Notes under the pieces: generated by a model
Seen by the model: the letters and a program-made list of their open reading frames with translations, nothing else
The model's database searches: none
What the model was told of the DNA's origin: nothing
Translations under genes and position numbers: made by a program
Part shown: positions 15,649 through 51,227 of the stretch, piece after piece
Numbering within the stretch: position 1 is the stretch's first letter
Layout: each line of letters starts with the position of its first letter
DNA from: Terriglobia bacterium
Lineage (GTDB): Bacteria; Acidobacteriota; Terriglobia; Acidiferrales; UBA7541
Assembly (NCBI GenBank): GCA_963695545.1
Contig: OY968796.1
Coordinates: 1,792,001-1,856,000, forward strand
Direction of reading: 5' to 3'
Length of the DNA: 64,000 bases

Positions 15649-15819
15649 CGCCCGATGCTGCCCTTGTCCTTTCGCAGCGCGAAATAAATGTGCGTTCTCG
15701 CCGGCGAGCGCGCGCTCCGCGCTCGCGGCGAGTCGGCCTCCCCCAAATTTAATCTGTGGATTCTCCTGCTGAGGAGAGTTGCGAGCCTACGCAGAGAAAT
15801 CCTCCAAAAGAGAACCCGC

Positions 15820-15868
15820 GTAGGAGTCATCTGCCCTTTCGGGCGATTTAGGGTGAACCCCAACACCC
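15820..15868 (-). ncRNA. Fluoride riboswitch (crcB motif) aptamer
   Basis: Minus strand reads GGGUG-UU-GGGGUU-CACCC-UAAAUC-GCCC-GAAA-GGGC-AGAU-GACUCC-UAC; P1, P2 and the pseudoknot all pair; lies upstream of crcB. Confidence 0.93.
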
Positions 15869-15890
15869 AAAAATTTTTTGCAACATGAAC

Positions 15891-18697: not shown

Positions 18698-18836
18698 GGC
18701 CGTTTGCCGCTCCTTTTCCACACGAATTCCAGCAATTATGGAGCGCCGGCCGTTTTCCGTCGACCCTTAAGATGCGCCGCGACCAGGACTTATTTTTCGA
18801 CACCGGCGAGTCCGGGCAGTGCCCTGTGGAAATTAA

Positions 18837-19182
18837 TTCGAATACTAATATACTAATTGACATATGCGTTCACAAATGCTATGCTTCTTCATGTTCGCCG
18901 GCATCCAATTCGAATTGCCCACCACCCCCGCTTTCCCCCGCCGGATCCCTGCGTCCACTCCCCCCGCTTTTGTCGGCCCGACGTGCAATCTGTGCATCCA
19001 TTTCGCCCCAGCAACTCCTTTACTTTCAGCCTCATACGCACTCCTCCAAAAGAGTGCGCATCTCATTGAAAACAATCATCATCAAGTCCCTTTGCGCTCA
19101 CACTCATCCGCACTCTTTCGCTGTACGTCCTTTAGTTTGAGCACTTTGACAAAAACATACCGGGGTGTATATAGGGCCCTTC
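18837..19182 (+). repeat. Dispersed ~340-bp element, copy 1
   Basis: Aligns with 42886-43220: TTCGAATACT, TTGACA, RTGTTCGCCG..A.CCAATTCGAAT, CGCACTC...CAAAAGAGTGCGCA, TCACACTCATCCGCACTCTT and AAAACATACC(C)GGGGTRTATATAGG. Confidence 0.9.
18857..18885 (+). promoter_or_regulatory. Sigma70-type promoter TTGACA-17-TATGCT (dispersed element, copy 1)
   Basis: Perfect -35 box, 17-nt spacer, extended -10 (TGcTATGCT), AT-rich upstream; ATG at 18891, 5 nt after the -10. Confidence 0.75.
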
Positions 19183-19190
19183 GCTCTTTT

Positions 19191-19213
19191 GTAGCGGAGG
19201 CCTTCAGGCCTCC
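19191..19213 (+). repeat. GTAG-type REP-like palindrome
   Basis: GTAGC-GGAGGCC-TTCA-GGCCTCC. Confidence 0.55.
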
Positions 19214-19337
19214 AGCCTTTTCTTGCGGCGTCCGCCAAAGCCCCAGCTACGTCGCCCTCAGGCCGGAAGTCGGAGTCTCCTTCGGAATGCCGGAGGCTTT
19301 CCAAGTTTTCCGGCGGCGCACGTGCAACCCGTCGTCT

Positions 19338-19685
19338 TTATTCTTCCGCGGGAGGACGATAGAAGAACAACGCCAGCAGACACCCGCCCGCCACCGCCAT
19401 CAACAAGAAAAACACGGTCGCCAGCACGACGCCCACGATCGTGCCGGAAATCCCGCGCGCGCCCGACAAGTGGCCCAGCAAAAGACCGCACCCGAAACCA
19501 AGTATGGCGATCCCGCCGAAGCCTGGAAGGTGGAATTTCCCGCGAGACGCCGCCCAGGGGATATACGCCAGGAGAAACACGCACACCACGGCCAGCGGCA
19601 GCACTACAGGCATCCTCACTCGACGGATCACCAGAGCAGCCAACGCGGGCAGTTGCCGGAGCGCGATCTCGGCGTCAAAGGGCAT
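19338..19685 (-). CDS. Small hypothetical membrane protein (~115 aa, 3-4 TM)
   Basis: Strongly hydrophobic segments and a charged C-terminus; start uncertain (ATG 19685 or GTG 19700). Confidence 0.6.
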   Translation of the reverse strand: MPFDAEIALRQLPALAALVIRRVRMPVVLPLAVVCVFLLAYIPWAASRGKFHLPGFGGIAILGFGCGLLLGHLSGARGISGTIVGVVLATVFFLLMAVAGGCLLALFFYRPPAEE

Positions 19686-19892
19686 GCCGATTGCACTCAC
19701 GCATGTTGGGTTCCCAAGCGCGTCATGAATCCGCCGCGCTCTACTTGCTCCCGTCCCGCGCGGCGGCACCTGCAACTGGCCATAAGTTGCTCTTGTGCAC
19801 TCACTTGGAGACGCATGGGGATTCTTTCGCGTAAGCGAATGTGGACACGGCGTAGTGGTGCGCGCACAAGAGTGCACTCAAACCAGGCGCTG

Positions 19893-19912
19893 GTGTCACC
19901 GATTGAGAACAC
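19893..19912. promoter_or_regulatory. GTGT-N12-ACAC candidate activator site
   Basis: GTGTCACCGATTGAGAACAC; 15/20 identical to 33895-33914. Confidence 0.55.
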
Positions 19913-19979
19913 TGGTGATGAATTCGCCTCGGACGCGAATCGGGCCGTCGCGATGAGTCGAGCGCAAGAGGAAATGGCG

Positions 19980-20438
19980 ATGAAACGCAAAAAAGAAGCC
20001 GGCCAAGCTCTCGTGCTCGTGGCGATTGCGCTGCTCCTCGTTCTCCTTCCGATCATGGGCCTCGGGATCGACTTCGGATATTTCCGATACCAGGAAGTGC
20101 AGTTGCAAACTGCCGCCGACGCCGCGGCCATCGCGGCGGCTGGCGAGCTCTCCTATTCGATTTCGTGCTCCTGCAACGCTTTGCAAACCGCGGGTCAGAA
20201 CGCCGCCGCGGCCAACGGCTTCACCAACACTGCGAACGGCGCGACGGTCGCGGTGAACAATCCGCCGCAATCTCCGCAGGATCCCAACAGCGGCAACGCA
20301 AATTACGTCGAGGTGGTCGTCACGCAGGATGAGCCCACATTTTTTGGAAAGGTACTTGGGATCAACTCCGTAACGCAGTCGGCGCGCGCCGTAGCGATTC
20401 AATCGAGCCAGACCGGCGCCGGCGTACTCGTGGAATGA
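19980..20438 (+). CDS. tadG: TadG-like minor pilin (short, no vWA domain)
   Basis: KKEAG|QALVLVA leader, LGIDFG, LQTAADAAAIAAA and VNNPP...YVEVVV...PTFF motifs; AGAGGA RBS. Confidence 0.85.
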   Translation: MKRKKEAGQALVLVAIALLLVLLPIMGLGIDFGYFRYQEVQLQTAADAAAIAAAGELSYSISCSCNALQTAGQNAAAANGFTNTANGATVAVNNPPQSPQDPNSGNANYVEVVVTQDEPTFFGKVLGINSVTQSARAVAIQSSQTGAGVLVE

Positions 20439-20995
20439 TTATGAAAACAGATTCGCAGATTTGCGAAGCGCGCCGCCGCGAGACGCGGTCGGCGCGCGCG
20501 TCCAGGTTCGCCCGCCGGAATCCCGTGCGCGGAGTCAGCACGCTCGAAGTGACGCTGATGCTGCCCTTCTTGCTTCTGCTTCTGATCGGCGTCGTGGATT
20601 TCGGCCAGCTTTTTCATCTCGCCATCGAAGTTTCAAATGCCGCGCGCGCCGGCGCGCAATACGGCTATCAAAATTCCGCCACCCAGGCGGACACCGCCGG
20701 AATGGTCGCCGCGGCACAGGACGATGCTTCCGACGTCACCACCTGGGGCACAAATGTCGCCACCTACGGATGCATGTGCTCGGATGGAACCTCCCAAAGC
20801 CAGATCGGCTCCTCGAGCTCCAGTTCGACGACGCTTTGCGCCACTCCGCCTTCTTCGTGTACATCGAAGGGAACGCAGCTGATCAACTACGTTCAGGTAC
20901 AGACGCAAGCCACTTACACGCCATTTTTTCCGTGGCCCGGCGCCCCTTCTTCCATCACGCTGAATGGGCAGGCCATGTATTGGGCGGCGCAGTAG
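20435..20995 (+). CDS. tadE: TadE-like pseudopilin
   Basis: RG|VSTLEVTLMLP...DFG...NAARAGAQY; Cys-containing C-terminal part. Confidence 0.88.
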   Translation: MIMKTDSQICEARRRETRSARASRFARRNPVRGVSTLEVTLMLPFLLLLLIGVVDFGQLFHLAIEVSNAARAGAQYGYQNSATQADTAGMVAAAQDDASDVTTWGTNVATYGCMCSDGTSQSQIGSSSSSSTTLCATPPSSCTSKGTQLINYVQVQTQATYTPFFPWPGAPSSITLNGQAMYWAAQ

Positions 20996-21575
20996 ACTTC
21001 AAGAAAGGGCGGAGACTAAATTGCAGGCTGCGGGTCAAGCGCCGATCCAATCGACGCGCCGAAATCACGAGCGAACCCTGCGCGAACACGGCAGCGCGCT
21101 TGTGGAATTCGCGCTGGTCACCGTGTTCGTTCTTTTTCCCTTGATTTTCGGCATCTTCGATTTCGCGCGGGCGGCGTACGCCTATCACTTCGTTTCCTTC
21201 GCCGCGCGCGAAGCCACGCGTTGGTCCAGCGTGCGCGGCGCGCAGTGCGCGAATTCTTTGCCCGCGCCGTGCCAGGCCACATCCGGCGCGGGCGGCAGCG
21301 TTGATACCTACGTGCGGAGCGTTCTGACCACTGGCCTCAATGTAGACACGAACTCGTGCTCAGCCACGCCCGGCTGTCTCGTCGTTACCACGAGCTGGCC
21401 TGGCGCGCCCGCGGGGATTAGTGCTCCATCTTCCTGCAGCGGCGGCGCTGGATCGAATTCTCCGGGATGTGCCGTGAGTGTCGAAATTCAATACACGTTT
21501 GGATTTGATCTTCCGTTTCTTCCGCAGGCCGTCATAAATATGTCCAGCACGTCTGAGACGGTGATATCCCAATAA
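20964..21575 (+). CDS. tadE: TadE-like pseudopilin
   Basis: HG|SALVEFAL...IFDFAR...AAREATRW; six Cys in the mature region; true start may be downstream (e.g. TTG 21021). Confidence 0.87.
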   Translation: MGRPCIGRRSRLQERAETKLQAAGQAPIQSTRRNHERTLREHGSALVEFALVTVFVLFPLIFGIFDFARAAYAYHFVSFAAREATRWSSVRGAQCANSLPAPCQATSGAGGSVDTYVRSVLTTGLNVDTNSCSATPGCLVVTTSWPGAPAGISAPSSCSGGAGSNSPGCAVSVEIQYTFGFDLPFLPQAVINMSSTSETVISQ

Positions 21576-21586
21576 TGCGCTCGCTT

Positions 21587-21982
21587 CTAGCGATTCAGCG
21601 TGGCGATTTCGAGGCGGTCTCCAACCTGCGTCCTCGAGCGATACAGAGTGTGCGGCGGGAGCTCAAGCACGCTCGACGCCTTGAAGGAAACTTTGGAAAT
21701 CCGGAACGGGCGCAGGTATTCCTCCACGCCCACCACCTCATTGTTTTTTCCAAGAAAGATCAGATCGATCGGGAACAGCATTCCGATGGTGTGCACGCCT
21801 CGGGACGGCTTGATCCACAGGCCGGCCCCGAGGCGCGCCCAGCTGCGTGTTTTTCCAAGCAAACCGATAAGCCGGCGGAGATAACTGTCCGCGAGTGTCG
21901 CTTCGGTGGCGACGAACGTCTCTCGCGTGTTGTTGTACACGTAGAGGGCGTTCCGTCGACGAGTTTTGTTTGGGCCGGTCAC
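21587..21982 (-). CDS. DUF192-domain protein
   Basis: ADSYLRRLIGLLG, GLWIKP, VHTIGMLFPIDLIFL and VLELP motifs. Confidence 0.9.
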   Translation of the reverse strand: MTGPNKTRRRNALYVYNNTRETFVATEATLADSYLRRLIGLLGKTRSWARLGAGLWIKPSRGVHTIGMLFPIDLIFLGKNNEVVGVEEYLRPFRISKVSFKASSVLELPPHTLYRSRTQVGDRLEIATLNR

Positions 21983-22019
21983 GTGACTGCCGAGCGCAAA
22001 GTTCGCTCGACTCCACTTG

Positions 22020-22118
22020 TTAGTCCGTAGTCTTTTTGCTGCGGCGGTAGATGATGATTCCCAGCACGACCAATGCCCCCGCAGCGGCCGCGATCCGAAT
22101 CAAAGTTACGGTATCCAT
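22020..22118 (-). CDS. 32-aa single-TM small protein (MDTVTLIRIAAAAGALVVLGIIIYRRSKKTTD)
   Basis: AAGGAG RBS 8 nt upstream of the ATG; one hydrophobic helix plus basic tail; co-oriented within the tad operon; absent from the ORF track. Confidence 0.7.
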   Translation of the reverse strand: MDTVTLIRIAAAAGALVVLGIIIYRRSKKTTD

Positions 22119-22190
22119 TTTTCTTGCTCCTTTGCGTTTTGATTTTGGCCCTCTCGCGCGAATCGCTCGCGCGAGAAACTTCTTCTTGCT

Positions 22191-23114
22191 TCACCTCAAA
22201 GCCGGAAGCAGCTGCCGCACCAAACCGATGATTGCCGGACCCAGCACGACGACCATCAGCGCTGGGAAAATGAACAGAACCAGCGGCGCGACCATTTTCA
22301 CGCTGGTCTTCGCGCTTCGCTCTTCCGCGCGCTGCCGCCTTTTTGTGCGCAGTTCGTCGGAATGCACGCGCAACGATTGCGCGATGCTGGTTCCGAAACG
22401 CTCCGTCTGGATCAGCATGGCGACCAGCGTACGAATGTCGTCGAGGTTTGTGCGGCGCGCGAGTTCGCGCAGCGCGTCGATGCGCGTTTTTCCCACACGC
22501 ATTTCGAGGTTCACGATCTGCAATTCTTCGCTCAATTCCGGATGCACCACGCGCAATTCCTGCGCCACTCGCAAGAGCGCCTGGTCGAGGCCCAGTCCGA
22601 CCTCCACGCAAATCACCAGCAAATCCAAGCCGTCCGGCAACGCCAGCCGAAGGCGCTTTCGACGCACCTTTCCGCGCCACTGCACCCACGTTTCCGGAAG
22701 CGCGATGCCCGCGCCCGCGGCGAGCAACAGAATCAAAACGGGCGCGTACCGATACACTCCGGTGAGCAACACGATCGCGAGGAACAAAATTGGGAGCGCA
22801 ACTTTGACGCCCCGAACTACCGACCGAGCGTCCGCGTTGCGATATCCAGCGCGAATCATGGTGAGCTGCGCGCGCAACGCTTTTCGCTCGCCCGCGGCGG
22901 GCAGAAGATGGCCGAGTGAAACCAGGGCGCCGCGCGCGCGTTGTTTCTGTTTTTCCGCGAAGCGTACGCGCTCGACGAGAATGGGCGTGTCGCGCAAGCG
23001 AGAAAGGCGCCGCGCGATACCCGATTCCTCCGCGCCCAGCGCGTATATCACGGCCGCCACCGCCGTGAGGGTGATGACGAACGTCGCGACGCTTAGGACC
23101 CAAGCCATGTTCAT
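22191..23114 (-). CDS. tadC: Tad inner-membrane platform protein TadC
   Basis: LPDGLDLLVICVEVGLGLDQAL, QTERFGTSIA and PLVLFIFPA motifs. Confidence 0.93.
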   Translation of the reverse strand: MNMAWVLSVATFVITLTAVAAVIYALGAEESGIARRLSRLRDTPILVERVRFAEKQKQRARGALVSLGHLLPAAGERKALRAQLTMIRAGYRNADARSVVRGVKVALPILFLAIVLLTGVYRYAPVLILLLAAGAGIALPETWVQWRGKVRRKRLRLALPDGLDLLVICVEVGLGLDQALLRVAQELRVVHPELSEELQIVNLEMRVGKTRIDALRELARRTNLDDIRTLVAMLIQTERFGTSIAQSLRVHSDELRTKRRQRAEERSAKTSVKMVAPLVLFIFPALMVVVLGPAIIGLVRQLLPALR

Positions 23115-23124
23115 CGCTCCAACT

Positions 23125-24093
23125 TCAAACTTCGATATGCACAATCTTCCAAAGAAGAAGCGAGCCCAGAAACTGAAGCGTCGCGGCCGCGCCCAGCGCG
23201 AGCTTCCCCCACGGATCGGTGAAGAGCACGTTCACGTATACCGGGTTGACGATTTCCAATCCGACGAGCATCGCGAGCGGCATGGCGATCAGAATCATCG
23301 CCGTCAAGCGCCCCTGGGCGGATTTCACCTGCACCTCGCGATGAATGCGGAAGCGATCGCGGATCAAGCGCGCGAGATCATCGAGAATTTCCGCCAGATT
23401 TCCGCCGGTCTCTTTTTGTACCAGCAGGGCCGTTACGAAAAAACGCACGTCGACCAGCGGAACGCGGTCGGTCATATTGATCAGAGCGTCGCGCATCGGA
23501 AGTCCGAAATTGCGCTCCTCGAATGTTTTGCGGAACTCGCCGGCGAGCAACTCTGGCGATTCCTTCGCGATCATTTCAAGGCCCGTGGTGAACGCGTGAC
23601 CTGCGCGCACCGCGCGGCTCAGCAGGTCCAGCGCTTCGGGGAACATTTCCTCGAATTGCCGCAGCCGCTTGCGGCGCTTGAGCGCGACGATACCGATCGG
23701 AATCGCGGCAGCGAAGAAGCCGACGACGACACCAAAAAAATTCATGTGGAAAAACAGAGAGGCGATGACGTACGCGCCCAGGCCGAGCACGCCGCTCCAG
23801 AGGAGAATTTTCGCGGGCTTGGTTGACATCCCGGCTTGCGCGATGAAATCGCGGAGCCGGCTGCTCCAGGAGACGCGCATCAATACGCGATGCAACAGGG
23901 GAACACTGCTGTACATTTCGTCGCGAACCAGCGCCAAATCCTCGTTGATCGGGCCGCGCTCTTCGGCCTTGCGGACTGCCTCCATCCGCTGGCGAATCAC
24001 TTCGTGCCGCGAGTTTCTTCCGACCGAGATCCAGACGGCGAGAAAAACTGCGGTGGCGATCAAGAATGTAATGATGGCGACGAGAAGCGCCAT
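23125..24093 (-). CDS. tadB: Tad inner-membrane platform protein TadB
   Basis: FPEALDLLSRAVRAGHAF, QKETGGNLAEILD and SAQGR motifs; AAGGAG RBS. Confidence 0.93.
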   Translation of the reverse strand: MALLVAIITFLIATAVFLAVWISVGRNSRHEVIRQRMEAVRKAEERGPINEDLALVRDEMYSSVPLLHRVLMRVSWSSRLRDFIAQAGMSTKPAKILLWSGVLGLGAYVIASLFFHMNFFGVVVGFFAAAIPIGIVALKRRKRLRQFEEMFPEALDLLSRAVRAGHAFTTGLEMIAKESPELLAGEFRKTFEERNFGLPMRDALINMTDRVPLVDVRFFVTALLVQKETGGNLAEILDDLARLIRDRFRIHREVQVKSAQGRLTAMILIAMPLAMLVGLEIVNPVYVNVLFTDPWGKLALGAAATLQFLGSLLLWKIVHIEV

Positions 24094-42455: not shown

Positions 42456-42885
42456 TAGAAATTGCGGACCATAATGTGAAATCAAATCGAGTATAAGGAA
42501 ACGTACCTCCGACCGGCCCAGCCCGTCACTTCTCGCCGTTTTGGGCGCAGTTTCCGTCGCCATCCAAGCCGCAGCCGCTCTCTTTTTCGGCCGCGCGGCG
42601 CGCAATCTATGTCCTTCGCGTCGTTGCTGTCAATCGGAAGTGTGTTCCTCTATTGAAGTTAGGGCGGCCCGATTTTGGCCCGGTGGCCCGAGACATTTCA
42701 ATTGTCAAAACGGAAATGCGGGGTGATAAAGCGTTCCGGCATTCAGATTGGAATATGGGCCACCTGCGATGGTCGCTCAATCCGTCGGCCGCGCTGATCT
42801 TTCCGCTGGCCTCGCTCTCCGTTGCTGCGCAATTCCCGCTCGCCGCCTTCGAAAAACTCCGCTCCATCCACTCCATTGATGTCGT

Positions 42886-43220
42886 TTCGAATACTTATTT
42901 ATTTGTTGACAACAATTCGTGCTTCTGATATTCTCGTACGTGTTCGCCGCCAACCAATTCGAATGGTCCGCCGCTTTTCCTCCCGTGCGCCTCGCGTTTC
43001 AGTTCGCCCCCGGGTGTGGTGACACTCAATCGTCTTTTCGCGCCCCAACAACCCTTTTATTTTCAAATCGATCCGCACTCTTTCAAAAGAGTGCGCAACT
43101 CATTCATAAAAAACATTTTGAATGCCCTTTCTTTTCACACTCATCCGCACTCTTCTCCTGGAAGTCTTTTGTTTCTATGCTCTTAAGCAAAACATACCCG
43201 GGGTATATATAGGCCCTTTC
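42886..43220 (+). repeat. Dispersed ~335-bp element, copy 2
   Basis: Aligns with 18837-19182; contains TTGACA-17-TATTCT (42906-42934) and an open frame 42940-43212. Confidence 0.9.
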
Positions 43221-45708: not shown

Positions 45709-46689
45709 ATGCTCGAAATGTTCCGGCGGAGAATCAAATACGCGCTCGCGGGAATCTGTTTCTTGCTTGTGGCGCAAACCGCGCTCGCGAATGACGCTTA
45801 TCTGTTTGCGTATTTCAAGGAGCCCGGCGATCAGGGAATTTATCTCGCCCTCAGCCGTGATGGATATCACTGGACTCCGCTGAACGATGGGCAGCCGTGG
45901 GTGAAGCCCGACCAAGGCGGAGAATTGATGCGCGACGTTTTCCTCACGCGTGGCCCGGACCATCGCTTCCGCATGGTGTGGACTTGGGGTTGGCACGGCA
46001 CTTCACTCGGCTATGCGGAGTCGCCCGATTTATTGCGTTGGTCGGCGCAAAAACAAATTCCGGTCATGCAGGACGTTCCCGGCACTAGCAACGTTTGGGC
46101 GCCGGAGACCTACTGGGACAGCCACGCGAAGCAATGGTTGATCGTGTGGTCCAGCAGCGTCGGCGATCCGGGTCCTGGCAATCGCATCTATTCCGCGCTC
46201 ACGCCGGACTTCAACACATTTTCCAAGCCGTCGGTCTTCTTCGATCCCGGCTACGTGGTGATCGATGCCACGATTTTTCACGGTCGCGGCCAGTACTATT
46301 TTATTTTCAAAGATCAGACGCCCGATCCGCTGCGTTACCAGATTCGCTACGCCACAGGACCAACCGTCGAAGGGCCCTGGTCCAATATTCATGAACCGAT
46401 CACCGAGTCCTGGTCCGAGGGACCGTCGGCGATTCACGTCGGCGATGAATACATCGTGTATTACGATCATTACCGCTTCCCGCGCCGGCAATACGAAGGC
46501 GTTGCCAGCAAGGATTGGGTGCACTGGAAGAGCGTCGACGATCAAATCAGTTTTCCCGAGAATTGCAAGCACGGCAGCTTCCTCAAAATTACGGAAAAGG
46601 AGGCCGATCGCCTCGCGGCGTATCACCCTGCGGCGGCATCTCCGGCGCCAACGCCGTCAGCGGCGTCGCCGAACGCGCCGCAACGATGA
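45709..46689 (+). CDS. GH43-family glycoside hydrolase, secreted
   Basis: YLFAYF, LMRD, NVWAPE, VIDATI, FKD, EGP and HGSF five-blade propeller motifs. Confidence 0.88.
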   Translation: MLEMFRRRIKYALAGICFLLVAQTALANDAYLFAYFKEPGDQGIYLALSRDGYHWTPLNDGQPWVKPDQGGELMRDVFLTRGPDHRFRMVWTWGWHGTSLGYAESPDLLRWSAQKQIPVMQDVPGTSNVWAPETYWDSHAKQWLIVWSSSVGDPGPGNRIYSALTPDFNTFSKPSVFFDPGYVVIDATIFHGRGQYYFIFKDQTPDPLRYQIRYATGPTVEGPWSNIHEPITESWSEGPSAIHVGDEYIVYYDHYRFPRRQYEGVASKDWVHWKSVDDQISFPENCKHGSFLKITEKEADRLAAYHPAAASPAPTPSAASPNAPQR

Positions 46690-46702
46690 GTGTTTGTTTT
46701 AT

Positions 46703-48937
46703 TTATTGCCCGGTCGGATTCCAGCCATCGCTGCCCGCGAGAACCTTTGCGGGAGCGAATCGCTCCTCTTCGGCGGGCGTGAGCTGGTGGGAATACTTTT
46801 CGCGCGCGGTGGGATCCGCACCGGGCCCCGAGGAATCGAATTCGGCATAGTAGGCCACGGGCAAACTGGGCACGCCGAATCGCGGCCATTCTTCCCAGCC
46901 CGCGGGAATCACGTTCGCGTCGATGCGCGTGTGCAAATACACCACCGACGCGTGCGGCCGCCACGGCCGTCCGAGCGCCACGATTCCGGTCGTGCGCGGA
47001 TCGGCCGTCAGCGTGCAGTGATCGAAGACGTAGCCGCTTTCCTGATCGGTGGAATGTTTGTCTTGCGCGGTGAACATCACGTTGCCCGGAGCGTTGCCAT
47101 GCAGTTCACAGCGCTCAAAAACGGCCACGCTGTCGCCGAAGACAAAATCGATGTTGCCGTCAACGTAGCAGTCGGAAAAATATTGGCGCGCCGCGACGCA
47201 TGGCCCGTAGTCGCCGTAGCAATATTTGCTCGCGGCAAAAAGCGTGTCCTGATTCCCATGCAGGCGCAACCAGCGAAACGTATCGCGATCGCCGGTCACT
47301 GCCAACGCCACAGCTTGGCCGTGGCCGCCTCCGGGCGTGAAGCTGTTGGTGATCGTCAGGTGATCGAGCGAAACGTTGTCGGCTTCGACGAACACCGTTG
47401 CGCTGTTGAACGTGCCGCCGGATTTCGGCGCGCCGTTGTCGTAGACGATGGTGACGGCGCTCGGATCGGCGCGATCTCCGCTGATTGAAACGCGCGGCTT
47501 GCGTATGGTGACCACCTCGCGATACGTGCCGGGCTTGACGGTGATGGAGCCGCCCTCGAGCGGCAGCGCGTCGACCGCGCTTTGCACGGATTTGAAATCG
47601 CCGCTGCCGTCTTGCGCGACGACAAGATAACGCTTCGCGCCAATCTTCGGGACATCGCCGGAGATCGGCGTGAATTGCTGTCGCGGCGGCTCGTGAAAAT
47701 AGAACATCTCCGTATCCGGGCACTTTGCCGCGCGCCCGTTCTGCAATCCAGCGCCGCCGAGAATTCCTTTGCCGGCGACGGAAACGTTATCGAACTCGAT
47801 CGCATTCGCGGCGGGAATCGACGCGCTGCTTTGACCGTTCGCGTCGATGGCGCGCAACGGTTGCGCGACGCCGTCCATGCAAACATTTTGGAAATGAACG
47901 TTGCGAATTCCCGCGCCATCCGCTCCGGCGAGTTGCAGCGTCAGACCGGCGTGCGCGCTCTGGAAGACTGCATTTGTAATCTGGATGTCGTTCGCGTCGC
48001 CATAATGCGCGTCGCCGATCGCGATTCCACGGCCGCCATAAATATGCAGATCGCTCAGACGCGCGTGCGTCGTCGGGCCGAGAATGCTGGCTTCAAGTGA
48101 GATGGATTCCGACGGAGTGTGAATCCACGCGCCGTCAATCGTGGCGTTGACGGAATTGCTGAGCACGATTCCCGGACCGGCGGCGGAATTGTCCGGCGAA
48201 TCGATCACCACGTGCGTGGCGACAAATCCGGGCGTTTTGTAAATGGCCAAGTGCGCGCCAGCGGCGTTGCGCAGCGTCACGCCGATCACCTGGAATCCTT
48301 GCGATTCGTAATCGGAAACAAGATCGGGGGCGCTGATCGGGTGGCCCGCTTTTTCCGCTGCGCGCTGGCGATCCCACCAGGACGGTTCATTGAAACTGAT
48401 CGCGGTTCCCCCTTGGCCGTCGATTGTTCCCGCGCCCATGATCGCGCTGTATGCAGCCTGATAGCTGAATACGAAAGGCTTGCATTGCACGGCGTCGGTT
48501 CGGACCGCGCCGCAACTCAATGGCGAGACGTCGTAATCGCGCGGATTGCGCGACGCCAAAAGCGTGACGCCGTCATCCACGTACAGCGTGACGCCGCGCG
48601 GCACAATCAGCGGAGCGGAGAGGAAAGCGTTCTTTTCGCCGTCGGGTTCGAGGTCGACGGATTGCCCTGGATTGCATACATTCAGCGCGTTTTGGATTCG
48701 CTGCGTATCGATCTCGACGTACTCGTCGTGGCGAACACCGTCGTCGTGCAGGCCAACGTGAGCCGACAGAATGGCGCACGACGGAGGAACGGGCAGTACC
48801 GTCGCGCGCGCCGCGGTTTGATCCGCTGCCTGGTCTTGATCTGGGTTCTGCGCCGCAGACTGCGCGTGAGCCTGCGAGAGCGCCGCCAGCGTGAATGCGA
48901 GAGCTCCCAGCGAAATCATTCGCGCGGTGCCCGACAT
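46703..48937 (-). CDS. Degenerate GH28-like beta-helix fused to CE8 pectin methylesterase
   Basis: N-terminal half: DTQRIQNAL..C, AFLSAPL, ASRNPRDYD, GAGTIDGQG. C-terminal half: VAQDGSGDF.SVQSA, PGTYRE, QAVAL, QDTL, DFVFG, LGRPW. Confidence 0.88.
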   Translation of the reverse strand: MSGTARMISLGALAFTLAALSQAHAQSAAQNPDQDQAADQTAARATVLPVPPSCAILSAHVGLHDDGVRHDEYVEIDTQRIQNALNVCNPGQSVDLEPDGEKNAFLSAPLIVPRGVTLYVDDGVTLLASRNPRDYDVSPLSCGAVRTDAVQCKPFVFSYQAAYSAIMGAGTIDGQGGTAISFNEPSWWDRQRAAEKAGHPISAPDLVSDYESQGFQVIGVTLRNAAGAHLAIYKTPGFVATHVVIDSPDNSAAGPGIVLSNSVNATIDGAWIHTPSESISLEASILGPTTHARLSDLHIYGGRGIAIGDAHYGDANDIQITNAVFQSAHAGLTLQLAGADGAGIRNVHFQNVCMDGVAQPLRAIDANGQSSASIPAANAIEFDNVSVAGKGILGGAGLQNGRAAKCPDTEMFYFHEPPRQQFTPISGDVPKIGAKRYLVVAQDGSGDFKSVQSAVDALPLEGGSITVKPGTYREVVTIRKPRVSISGDRADPSAVTIVYDNGAPKSGGTFNSATVFVEADNVSLDHLTITNSFTPGGGHGQAVALAVTGDRDTFRWLRLHGNQDTLFAASKYCYGDYGPCVAARQYFSDCYVDGNIDFVFGDSVAVFERCELHGNAPGNVMFTAQDKHSTDQESGYVFDHCTLTADPRTTGIVALGRPWRPHASVVYLHTRIDANVIPAGWEEWPRFGVPSLPVAYYAEFDSSGPGADPTAREKYSHQLTPAEEERFAPAKVLAGSDGWNPTGQ

Positions 48938-48947
48938 CGAGAACTCC

Positions 48948-51227
48948 CTAATTCTGAAACAGCCAATCCAGATTCGCCGGCTGGGCCGGTTGCGACTGTG
49001 CCGGAGCTGCGGGTGCGGGTGCGGGCGCGGACGCCGATGCCTCCGCGTTTTGCAGCGACGCGAGATGATCCTGGAAAATCTTCAATTCGTTTTCGTACGC
49101 GGGCAGCGCGTCGCGCCAGTGTGAATATTTTCCGTCCGCGCCGGAGAATGGAATTTGACGCTGCTTGGTCAGCAGAGCGCACGCCTGTCGATACGTGGTA
49201 TCCGTGAGTGCGACGAGAGCGCGATAGAAATCTACGCTGTCGGACAGAAGTTTTTCCGCCTGCACCAGATGATCGAGATTGTGGTCGTATCCATACAGCA
49301 TCACGAGCTCGGCCGCCTGCGTCTTCGCGTTGTAATACTGCATCAGCGCGTGGATGCATCGCATATCGTTCAGAATGCGTTCAAATTCCGCGCGATCTTG
49401 GGTGACGTAAGGGCCGGCCGCTTCCGCGGCTTCGACCGCTCGCGCGGAAGAGTCTGTGACTTCGGCGGCGACTCCGATGGGCGTTTCGCCCACGTGCGGT
49501 TGATGCGTGAATTCGCGTTGCACGTAGTCGTCGAGGCGCTCGCCTTCGGGCGCGTCACCGGTCCAAAGCGTGGGCTCGGGATGATAGCGAGCGGCGTCGA
49601 TCAATTGGGTCATCAAAAGGCCAAGCGAGAATGCTTCGCGATTGCCTTCGGTGATGCCGATGCGCGGCAGAAGGCGCGGCGCGCACACGCCGGAAAGTTC
49701 GTACGCCGCGAGCAGATGTTCGCCCGCCTCCGCGCTGCCGAATTTTTCGGCGAAGCGACGCACCCAATAAGCGTGCTCGGCGGCCGGATCGCGATTCGGA
49801 TTCCATGCGTAGCGTGCCCAAGCCTCGTACCAGATCCAGTCGCGATCGATCTGTTGCAGCAGCGGCTGCGTGTTGTCCGCCGAATATGGCCAGTCCCAGT
49901 AGCGAAGCGGATAGAGATGCAGCCCGCTGATGCCGATTTTCTGAAACGACAGGACGCACTGGCGAATAAAATCCGGATCGCCCCAGCGAAAGGGCTCGAG
50001 GTTGGAAAGGAGATGCACGTTGGAGATATCGATCGGCGCGAGTTCCGCGAGCATCACATCTTTGTCGCGAATCGTGCCGCGCACGTCGGTCCAGGTGAGC
50101 GATTCGCCAGTCCATTTCTCCATTGTGTCGATGTTGTGATAGAGCGGGAGACTCGCATCCATCACCGCTTTGATGTCGGTTGCGTGCGCGCGAACCACGA
50201 TCGGCGGCTCGATGGTCGTTCCGAGCGCAGCCAAGCCGTCCTTCACGCCGGGAATAATGGTTTGGCTCATCCATTCGGCGCCGTATTGCGGAGCCATGGC
50301 CTCGCCGAGCGTGATCAGCAGACCCACGTTGGGATATTGCTGGATGAATTGCGAAATCACGTATCGCGTGTACTCGCTTGAAAGTGGCGTGGGCTGCGAC
50401 AAGTGGTATGGCACGCCGTGCGCGCGAGCGAACGCGTGCGAGAGATGGATATTGTAAAAGCCCTGCACGACCCAGATTCCGCGGCGATCCGCTTCTTCGG
50501 TGAGCCAGCGAAACATGGCGATGTTCTGGTTAAGTTGCGCGTCGGAAAGTTCCTGGGCCTCGGGATAACGCGGCAGCTTCAGCAGCGAAGTGAAGGGATG
50601 TCCATTCCACAGATACAGAGTGTTCATCCGGCCGTCGACGAGAAAATCGAGATATCGAATCCACGCGGCTTTGTCGTAGAAAAACGGAAAATTCTCCGGG
50701 GTGTACGGATAATCGTACTCGGCGCCCTCGTAGGTGATTTCGGTTTTCTGCATGCCGATGCAAGTGCCGCGCAATTTCAAGGAGGGATGATCTTCAAAAT
50801 CGAGATCAATGGGCAGCGCGCCGGCCTTTTCGATGCGGTCGGCGAGTTCCAGGCTGCCGTAGAGAACGCCGGAGGGATCGCTGCCGGCGACAATCCAGGT
50901 GTCGCCGATGCGCTTCAGTAGAAACGCTTCCGTCGCGCCGGGCCAGAACTGCGCGAGAGGATAGCGTGCCAGCAGCGGTGAATTGCGAACGGCCACGACA
51001 ACCTTGGCGTTTGCGGCGGCTGGGCCAGAGATATTTTGCAAGATTCCACTGAGACGTTCGGCGCCATATTTTTCGCGCGGCGTCGCATTGGGCGCCGTGA
51101 TCACCGGGACGGAAGCGGCTGCGGCGACAGGCAAGAAACAAAACAGCGCAACGGCGAGATAAAGGGAGCGCGGGGATTTCGGCGCCGGCAAATTGGACTT
51201 TCGAGGCAGCAAGAACGACGGCAGCAT
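48948..51227 (-). CDS. Probable GH138-like alpha-galacturonidase
   Basis: CIGMQK...YPYTPENFPFFYDK..W..YLD...RMNTLYLWNGHPF.SL, NLEPFRWG, HLYP and DRDWIWY motifs, recognised from memory of Bacteroides GH138 proteins. Confidence 0.72.
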   Translation of the reverse strand: MLPSFLLPRKSNLPAPKSPRSLYLAVALFCFLPVAAAASVPVITAPNATPREKYGAERLSGILQNISGPAAANAKVVVAVRNSPLLARYPLAQFWPGATEAFLLKRIGDTWIVAGSDPSGVLYGSLELADRIEKAGALPIDLDFEDHPSLKLRGTCIGMQKTEITYEGAEYDYPYTPENFPFFYDKAAWIRYLDFLVDGRMNTLYLWNGHPFTSLLKLPRYPEAQELSDAQLNQNIAMFRWLTEEADRRGIWVVQGFYNIHLSHAFARAHGVPYHLSQPTPLSSEYTRYVISQFIQQYPNVGLLITLGEAMAPQYGAEWMSQTIIPGVKDGLAALGTTIEPPIVVRAHATDIKAVMDASLPLYHNIDTMEKWTGESLTWTDVRGTIRDKDVMLAELAPIDISNVHLLSNLEPFRWGDPDFIRQCVLSFQKIGISGLHLYPLRYWDWPYSADNTQPLLQQIDRDWIWYEAWARYAWNPNRDPAAEHAYWVRRFAEKFGSAEAGEHLLAAYELSGVCAPRLLPRIGITEGNREAFSLGLLMTQLIDAARYHPEPTLWTGDAPEGERLDDYVQREFTHQPHVGETPIGVAAEVTDSSARAVEAAEAAGPYVTQDRAEFERILNDMRCIHALMQYYNAKTQAAELVMLYGYDHNLDHLVQAEKLLSDSVDFYRALVALTDTTYRQACALLTKQRQIPFSGADGKYSHWRDALPAYENELKIFQDHLASLQNAEASASAPAPAPAAPAQSQPAQPANLDWLFQN

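Follow-up and report, generated by a model that had tools for sequence, protein, structure and literature searches.

The window analysed here is a 64,000-nt stretch of the chromosome of a Terriglobia bacterium (G000:1792001-1856000), whose genome forms a single contig of 4.16 Mb with 3126 genes called by a custom codon-model script rather than a standard annotator. The names of homologues assign the host to Candidatus Acidiferrales. The window holds two forward-strand copies of an intergenic element, here called the cassette, whose similarity to each other is far above chance (BLASTN E ~2e-24), and dozens of further matches occur in the genome. Copy 1 begins about 12 nt before position 18837 when a putative DnaA-box-like 9-mer, ATTTCCACA (18825-18833, reverse strand), is counted, which resembles the DnaA consensus and is also clustered upstream of dnaA; copy 2 has no such 9-mer at the equivalent position. 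An operator-like TTCGAA palindrome follows in copy 1 (18837-18842), with a second TTCGAA 3' of the start codon (18909-18914), while the two palindromes of copy 2 lie at 42848-42853 and 42886-42891. As the earlier note had described, TTGACA stands exactly 20 nt on from the TTCGAA at 18837 and 42886 (at 18857 and 42906), a 17-nt spacer leads to a TG-extended -10 element, TG-n-TATGCT (18880-18885) or TG-n-TATTCT (42929-42934), and an ATG (18891) or GTG (42940) comes 5 nt later. The predicted sigma70-type promoters occupy 18857-18885 and 42906-42934 on the forward strand.

What had been overlooked is that the frame starting at the predicted +1 ATG or GTG is open through the body in both copies. 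In copy 1, this leaderless frame (18891-20438, forward strand) crosses the entire body and continues over the adjoining genes, and its peptide is not conserved within the family; in copy 2, it comprises 90 codons (42940-43212, forward strand) and has the terminal G-run motif at its end. Downstream of the start, copy 1 has a variable C-rich linker (18915-19012, forward strand), and the bodies (19013-19159 and 43049-43196, forward strand) each contain three direct units resembling the IHF consensus, at 19013, 19084 and 19125 in copy 1 and at 43049, 43121 and 43162 in copy 2. Within the body lies an inverted repeat, AAGAGTGCG (19050-19058) paired with CGCACTCTT (19109-19117) in copy 1 and 43087-43095 with 43146-43154 in copy 2. 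Both copies close with a G-run motif (19160-19174 and 43197-43212, forward strand). This shared end, a 12-nt indel in the linker and a single gap in the body agree with what had been said of the alignment. A GTAG-type REP palindrome, which belongs to a family separate from the cassette, adjoins copy 1 (19191-19213, forward strand). Tad/Flp pilus-type genes stand directly after copy 1 (about 19872-23144; Pfam Tad and T2SSF matches), and a fluoride riboswitch scoring above the Rfam gathering threshold is located at 15814-15876 on the reverse strand.

That the element is present twice, as had been claimed, is an effect of the window. BLASTN and iterated nhmmer searches find 112 cassette loci in the genome, 56 on each strand, of which 91 have the body of the window copies (type A) and 21 have a different body behind the same promoter module (type B). 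The parts follow each other in the order TTCGAA, TTGAC, TG-extended -10, five bases, start codon, variable C-rich linker, body and G-run. The start codon is ATG in 65 and GTG in 37 of 102 promoter calls. Among the 96 copies in which both ends were called (16 were dropped), the frame from the start is open to the G-run in 91, compared with 9 and 12 for the other two frames, and it contains 7 stops, compared with 203 and 237. This frame reaches the body anchor in phase 0 in 35 copies, in phase 2 in 29 and never in phase 1, and at the cassette end all three phases occur. Because the frame is kept open while the phases vary at the body and the end, translation of the cassette frame appears to be under selection and the peptide sequence does not; the conserved peptide expected of a small protein was not found across the two body and three end phases. 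The open frames of the cassettes are a likely source of false hypothetical proteins. At the copy at 2947656 (forward strand), the leaderless frame continues in frame into the downstream gene, which we take to resemble an NAD-dependent DNA ligase.

The body units are spaced by about 42 and 60 nt in type A and by 39 nt in type B, as counted by eye, and matches to the IHF consensus number 41 and 60, compared with 12 and 9 in shuffled sequences. The 9-bp inverted repeat has no compensatory changes across 89 copies, in which all variation breaks pairs, and units and repeat are better read, from their sequence, as DNA sites than as an RNA helix. Rfam has no family at gathering score over either window copy, and for copy 1 there are, at E<=1, two weak snoRNA matches far under threshold. 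A family of structured small RNAs, which the earlier note had considered, or of small proteins would fit the canonical promoter, the open frames and the inverted repeat; with more than one frame in use at both body and end, no compensatory pairs and no Rfam match, this explanation is very improbable, and its structured-RNA form is not supported. A G-run of at least four is present in 101 of the 106 copies with an end call, which places a promoter upstream of a G-rich tract, as in R-loop-primed origins of the ColE1/oriK type.

The copies are evenly spaced: the coefficient of variation of the gaps is 0.57, compared with 0.99 for random positions and a minimum of 0.70 in 10,000 placements, both uniform and drawn from 865 intergenic sites. 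A plain portable promoter, another of the earlier suggestions, explains neither this spacing nor the strand switch described below, which lies several kb ahead, and 32 of 106 copies point toward a gene on the opposite strand. The suggestion of a diverged family of non-autonomous, promoter-bearing units is supported, with 112 copies and with both window copies facing empty sites at the orthologous places in the relative G003, which has its own cassette, in the opposite direction, 1.1 kb from the site of copy 1. Terminal inverted repeats and target duplications were likewise not seen, as stated, at 109 aligned ends or at the G003 empty site, where a duplication may have decayed, the sites being old.

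Of 31 genomes, 10 contain the promoter pattern, and these all belong to one family. Of the 38 copies in G003 and G004 compared with the genome of the window, 14 are at shared sites, 7 face empty sites, 11 are at broken synteny and 6 lack flanks. In one gap (757170-757480; L085, L120), G003 and G004 have cassettes in opposite orientations, and the genome of the window retains at 757.2 kb only a 19-nt remnant of the cassette that is complete in G003. The promoters of a dozen G018 cassettes (L143-L162) are almost identical and the bodies behind them very different, a pattern pointing to recent spread and modular exchange. Contigs from four DNA runs of one study, which carry no local depth and may come from the assembly's own source study, span copy 1 with no differences and no empty allele.

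The cassettes are associated with a strong strand polarity, measured as the G/C skew at fourfold-degenerate sites and oriented by the cassette. The skew stands at about -0.31 between -5 kb and the cassette, changes sign between +4 and +5 kb and has its maximum of +0.18 around +11 kb, with the same sign in genes of both orientations; the top strand is still C-rich for 0-3 kb beyond the cassette. Behind the cassette, skew is negative for 101 of 112 copies (mean -0.29, compared with a null of 0.00 +/- 0.02), and 7-13 kb ahead it is positive for 89 of 112. The flip from C-rich to G-rich falls in range for 94 of 112 copies, at a median of 4.4 kb ahead of the cassette (interquartile range 2.9-5.8). 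The replichores based on dnaA are without skew (-0.006 and -0.002). In the window, copy 1 has skews of -0.35 behind and +0.18 ahead, and its flip lies at 22000-24000, where the segmentation switches at about 22.8 kb. Behind copy 2 the C-rich zone is missing (+0.05); the skew is -0.16 at 0-3 kb and +0.22 ahead, and the noisier flip of this copy lies at 46000-50000 (segmentation switch at about 46.6 kb). The flip recurs in G003 and in G004, with 19 copies in each genome, and a weaker one is seen in G018, where five of the 20 copies lack the C-rich zone behind.

In orthologues for which the cassettes of two species make conflicting predictions, the skew difference tracks each species' own cassette (rho 0.52 for 49/164 genes; rho 0.73 for 53/234 genes). 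The association suggests that the cassette causes the polarity, given the order of events at 757.2 kb, where the skew still flips beside the 19-nt remnant. The correspondence is incomplete: a permissive segmentation yields 231 C-to-G switches, of which only 104 lie no more than 10 kb from a cassette oriented toward them, and in G001, G015 and G023 no cassette can be recognised at some of the flips. Skew domains that are long or strong are seen in G015 (L026-L045) and G023 (L073-L082), in part without a recognisable cassette, and strong polarity domains may be class-wide. Strong promoter-like sequences other than cassettes occur 2-3 kb before flips in G015 (L027:15640-15740) and G001 (L049:2500-2560). 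An 8-mer scan at the flips finds no sequence motif that switches other than G-richness. The decay of the skew fits a fixed 18-kb decay as well as a gradient scaled to the gap (bootstrap interval -67 to 536). The substitution spectrum is mostly a C/G asymmetry, and an E. coli control (2 x 50 kb) has a similar, weaker one, so that forks and breaks are not separated by it.

As a general rule, the G-rich strand is the leading strand. This sign is weakly anchored in the clade: in G216, a complete genome of another family, two 160-kb samples have skews of -0.094 and +0.139, and the 80 kb around dnaA is mostly positive on both sides. With the opposite sign, the flips could be points at which forks meet, replication being initiated diffusely and each cassette acting as a polar barrier: strong transcription from its promoter would stall head-on forks a few kb in front of it, and the C-rich strand would be the leading one. 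Dispersed, origin-independent initiation is described for cyanobacteria (PMC7198777). A barrier would account for the offset and for the convergence of genes on the flip, where the co-oriented share is 0.28-0.44 at +3 to +8 kb, compared with 0.56-0.66 in matched controls. However, it needs the reversed skew sign, against which the G216 samples weigh weakly, and it offers no account of the repeats, of the DnaA-like box or of how the family spread. A flip set by the first convergent gene was also considered and rejected, as the distance to the flip shows no correlation with the position of the first opposite gene (rho 0.12, p 0.25), which speaks against the barrier as well. Altogether, the meeting of forks at the flip is an unlikely explanation.

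REP palindromes, which were defined independently of skew, provide a second line of evidence on the direction of forks. The GTAG-type family has about 53 members in the genome, 28 of which lie within 5 kb behind a cassette. In three REP families, the REP direction agrees with that predicted from the cassettes at 34/38, 17/19 and 10/12 loci, compared with just 17/38, 10/19 and 5/12 for the direction predicted from oriC; a fourth family has no clear bias (12/20). REPs more than 1.5 kb from a cassette still agree with it (21/24 and 8/10). Elements that transpose as single-stranded DNA orient with forks (PMC3971601), and by analogy we infer that this rule extends to the REPs found here.

A DnaA-box-like 9-mer, within one mismatch of the DnaA box, stands just before TTCGAA in 43 of 103 copies, compared with 367 of 9299 control windows (3.9%), and in 7/18, 11/20 and 12/16 copies of three relatives. 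Among intergenic regions, such 9-mers are most densely clustered upstream of dnaA, where they also recur in G001, G021 and G023. The skew is no stronger where the box is present (-0.28, -0.34, -0.26), 60 of 103 copies are without it and none was seen in the cassettes of G216; the box may regulate only the promoter. An oriC has a cluster of several DnaA boxes and a flip at the element itself, and the cassettes have at most one 9-mer before the palindrome and a flip that is displaced ahead of them.

G216 was chosen as a negative control. It has no zinc-finger gene of the kind described below and no terminase match (queries P0004, PF03237, PF03354 and PF04466), and its polarity domains are stronger still, from -0.75 to +0.79. 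Its intergenic repeats include a cassette that is unrelated in sequence, without any profile match, and likewise ends in IHF-like repeats and a G-run. All seven copies in 400 kb are C-rich behind, with a mean of -0.57 (null minimum -0.53 in 5000 draws), a count biased in favour, as this cassette family was picked after the flips were seen; one out-of-sample copy agrees (-0.43). The flip lies 0-3 kb ahead of these cassettes. Long tandem REP-like arrays stand directly behind two of them (L178, about 3752.8-3754.2 kb; L181, 3809.8-3810.7 kb).

These observations also bear on whether the cassette is a passenger, that is, a MITE-like or portable-promoter element that is inserted, or persists, at a set distance from, and in a set orientation to, polarity switches that have another cause. 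The orientation of REPs with local polarity, the flips without a recognised cassette and the mobility evident from empty sites are all consistent with this. Against it, the skew tracks lineage-specific copies, it persists at a site from which the cassette was lost, and it is weaker around the near-identical, probably young promoters of G018. Moreover, the REPs of G216 share the polarity but, unlike the cassettes, have no flip just ahead, and neither the terminal inverted repeats nor the target duplication of such an element were seen. A passenger is therefore quite unlikely.

A zinc-finger gene follows four of the 112 copies, and the other 108 have no such gene. Its protein has 212 homologues, and the gene is found in 16 of the 31 relatives and in 3 of 301 genomes of a phylum-wide draw. 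Cassette-like repeats or the cassette promoter precede it in the 11 loci inspected from the same family, as judged by eye, and two further loci have a looser cassette-like sequence upstream, again by eye. The tail of three of the four zinc-finger proteins matches P0002 (tblastn E 4.5e-4), which is encoded in a resident head-gene cluster (L008/L009, 3384000-3406000) with a large terminase (TerL), a major head protein, a structural protein and an endolysin. In this cluster, P0002 lies downstream of the capsid gene; IS-like frames, read from the translation, stand between the TerL region and the capsid gene. Homologues of P0002, with weak E-values, are encoded just upstream of TerL in G015 and G008, a position that makes P0002 a candidate small terminase (TerS). 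Taken together, the matches argue for a packaging ancestry of the zinc-finger gene. The structure models are weak (pLDDT 65 for the finger protein and 57 for P0002), and a fold search with the finger protein returns generic helical matches (Z up to 6.3) and no viral match at E<=0.001. The small terminase and adaptor candidates have no Pfam or PHROG match, and an Atlas look-up of P0002 gives unnamed clusters and a weak DUF5681 neighbour.

Cassettes could accordingly be selfish packaging sites, bound by a terminase-like adaptor, either the zinc-finger protein or the resident TerS. DNA would then be cut at a point a few kb in front of the cassette, and the skew would be written from that break, by polar uptake, by resection or by restart through recombination; the offset would place the cassette inside the transferred piece with homologous flanks. 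In addition to the zinc-finger genes behind four copies, three with the P0002-like tail, and the P0002 homologues beside the large terminase, this has in its favour that TerS C-termini bind TerL in lambda and P22 (PMC9611059), that a resident TerL is found in 12 of 31 genomes (as a match in two pieces in G001, G008, G010 and G015) and that restart from a two-ended break would give the same skew sign as an origin. Yet the zinc-finger gene and TerL co-occur no more than expected at random among the 31 genomes (both in 6, finger only in 10, TerL only in 6, neither in 9), and the flip is present in G018 and G216, in which the same four queries find no terminase; the packaging link therefore does not carry the skew. 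The finger protein has no relative in viral contigs, none of 50,697 phage records matches copy 1 at the DNA level, the G-rich strand shows no enrichment in T, which speaks against deamination of long-lived single-stranded DNA, and forks explain the REP orientation more simply. Packaging is thus a doubtful source of the polarity.

The reading that fits most of these observations is that the cassettes are directional selfish sites that start local bidirectional replication, to which a probability of about one half is given. Replication would start about 4 kb ahead of each copy, and the cassettes would spread since DNA nearby is copied preferentially. The steps of this mechanism differ in their support. 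The best supported is that the polarity was left by forks that travel away from the flip, as the REP orientation follows the cassettes and a DnaA-like 9-mer precedes TTCGAA. Second, the body would consist of helically phased, IHF-like protein-binding DNA sites, with a DnaA box in part of the family. Third, the leaderless frame would let a ribosome shield the C-rich transcript from Rho and so carry transcription across the repeats and the G-run. Fourth, this transcription would prime or position initiation downstream, either through an R-loop formed on the G-run or because a loaded helicase is pushed along, and the offset would result from this. The least supported step is that a second copy within about 20 kb would bring its neighbours no gain, from which the even spacing would result. 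The zinc-finger gene would be an accessory protein of the family itself, of phage-packaging ancestry and not required in cis. A wider and tentative reading is that in Acidobacteria of this class oriC is not the main start of replication and chromosomes are copied chiefly from mini-origins, dozens to a hundred in number, that are mobile, phage-derived and driven by transcription. Such a programme of many origins would resemble that of eukaryotes and would be built from a selfish element that species acquire and lose.

Several observations go against an origin at the cassettes. The flip is 2-8 kb off the cassette, and we know of no origin that works at such an offset. In an R-loop-primed origin, the leading strand starts at the end of the primer, and here the first 3 kb downstream retain the polarity seen behind the cassette. 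Genes converging on the flip would be head-on for an origin and suit meeting forks better; both the 4-kb offset and this convergence are unexplained by local replication starts. Moreover, many weak switches are without a cassette, as are certain flips in G001, G015 and G023, copy 2 and a quarter of the G018 copies (5/20) lack the C-rich zone behind, the skew does not depend on the DnaA-like box, which most copies lack, and dnaA, one dnaB and a partial RNase H match are all present in the genome. The last of these leaves a loss of RNase HI, which had been considered, without support. The signature of an origin would equally be produced by a programmed break from which replication restarts through recombination.

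A single origin per bacterial chromosome is near-dogma. The exceptions proposed so far have, as far as the accounts consulted go, no defined origin sequence, whereas here an oriented, sequence-defined cassette predicts polarity chromosome-wide in several species, as does a cassette of different sequence in a second family. Each genome offers about a hundred sites for testing, in a phylum that ranks among the most abundant in soil, and skew tools based on oriC and growth estimates based on origin-to-terminus ratios could mislead for organisms that carry such cassettes. If the packaging explanation is true, the cassettes would represent a genome-wide transfer drive, likewise undescribed in the literature searched. 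The cassette itself is not described in the literature and databases searched, a scope outside which article supplements and most subscription papers fall; it is not mentioned in the available part of a survey of 24 Acidobacteria genomes (PMC5900883), nor did a term search find it in the accessible text of a 2026 preprint on non-coding mining.

MITEs and REP/BIME elements (RIB) are dispersed, non-autonomous and intergenic, with IHF-like sites and empty orthologous sites, all of which is also seen in the cassettes. These differ from them in having their own promoter, a selected open frame and over-dispersed spacing, and from MITEs in that no terminal inverted repeats or target duplication were seen. 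Phage cos and pac-terS regions (PMC9611059) resemble the cassettes in the succession of IHF-like sites, end motif and a gene with a TerS-like tail, and PICI/SaPI packaging redirection is grouped with them as a near system. In contrast to these, the cassettes have no integrase, att sites or replication genes, as a phage satellite would, being copies of a few hundred bp of which four add one gene, and the polarity is also present in genomes in which searches found no terminase.

Multi-origin, DnaA-independent replication in cyanobacteria is similar in that the chromosome lacks a two-replichore skew (PMC7198777), as is also the case in Wigglesworthia and Wolbachia, for which multiple origins were derived from skew (PMC3269012); the latter source also cautions that skew flips alone do not prove origins. 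The parts of these two sources that were consulted define no origin element, whereas the cassette genome has a strong, regular skew tied to an oriented cassette, in some copies with DnaA-like boxes. In E. coli, constitutive stable DNA replication from oriK sites and ColE1 priming are likewise linked to transcription, independent of oriC and spread over many sites, and the former needs the loss of rnhA or recG and has no defined sequence element, as far as the excerpt of PMC4287441 tells. In the cassette genome, by comparison, a conserved mobile element marks the sites and an RNase H match is present; by analogy, R-loop priming is the closest working model for the promoter and the G-run. In Bartonella, run-off replication with the gene transfer agent BaGTA also combines an additional phage-derived chromosomal start with a conserved head-gene cluster that has been kept, and it differs in having a single origin, at whose peak lies a phage helicase gene (PMC2697382), compared with about 112 non-coding cassettes here; a search for the DnaB family found no phage helicase or primase gene at the cassettes, the single DnaB_C match of the genome being at 810 kb. 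By the features tested, the cassettes are members of none of these near systems, and by analogy they appear most like Bartonella run-off and R-loop replication.
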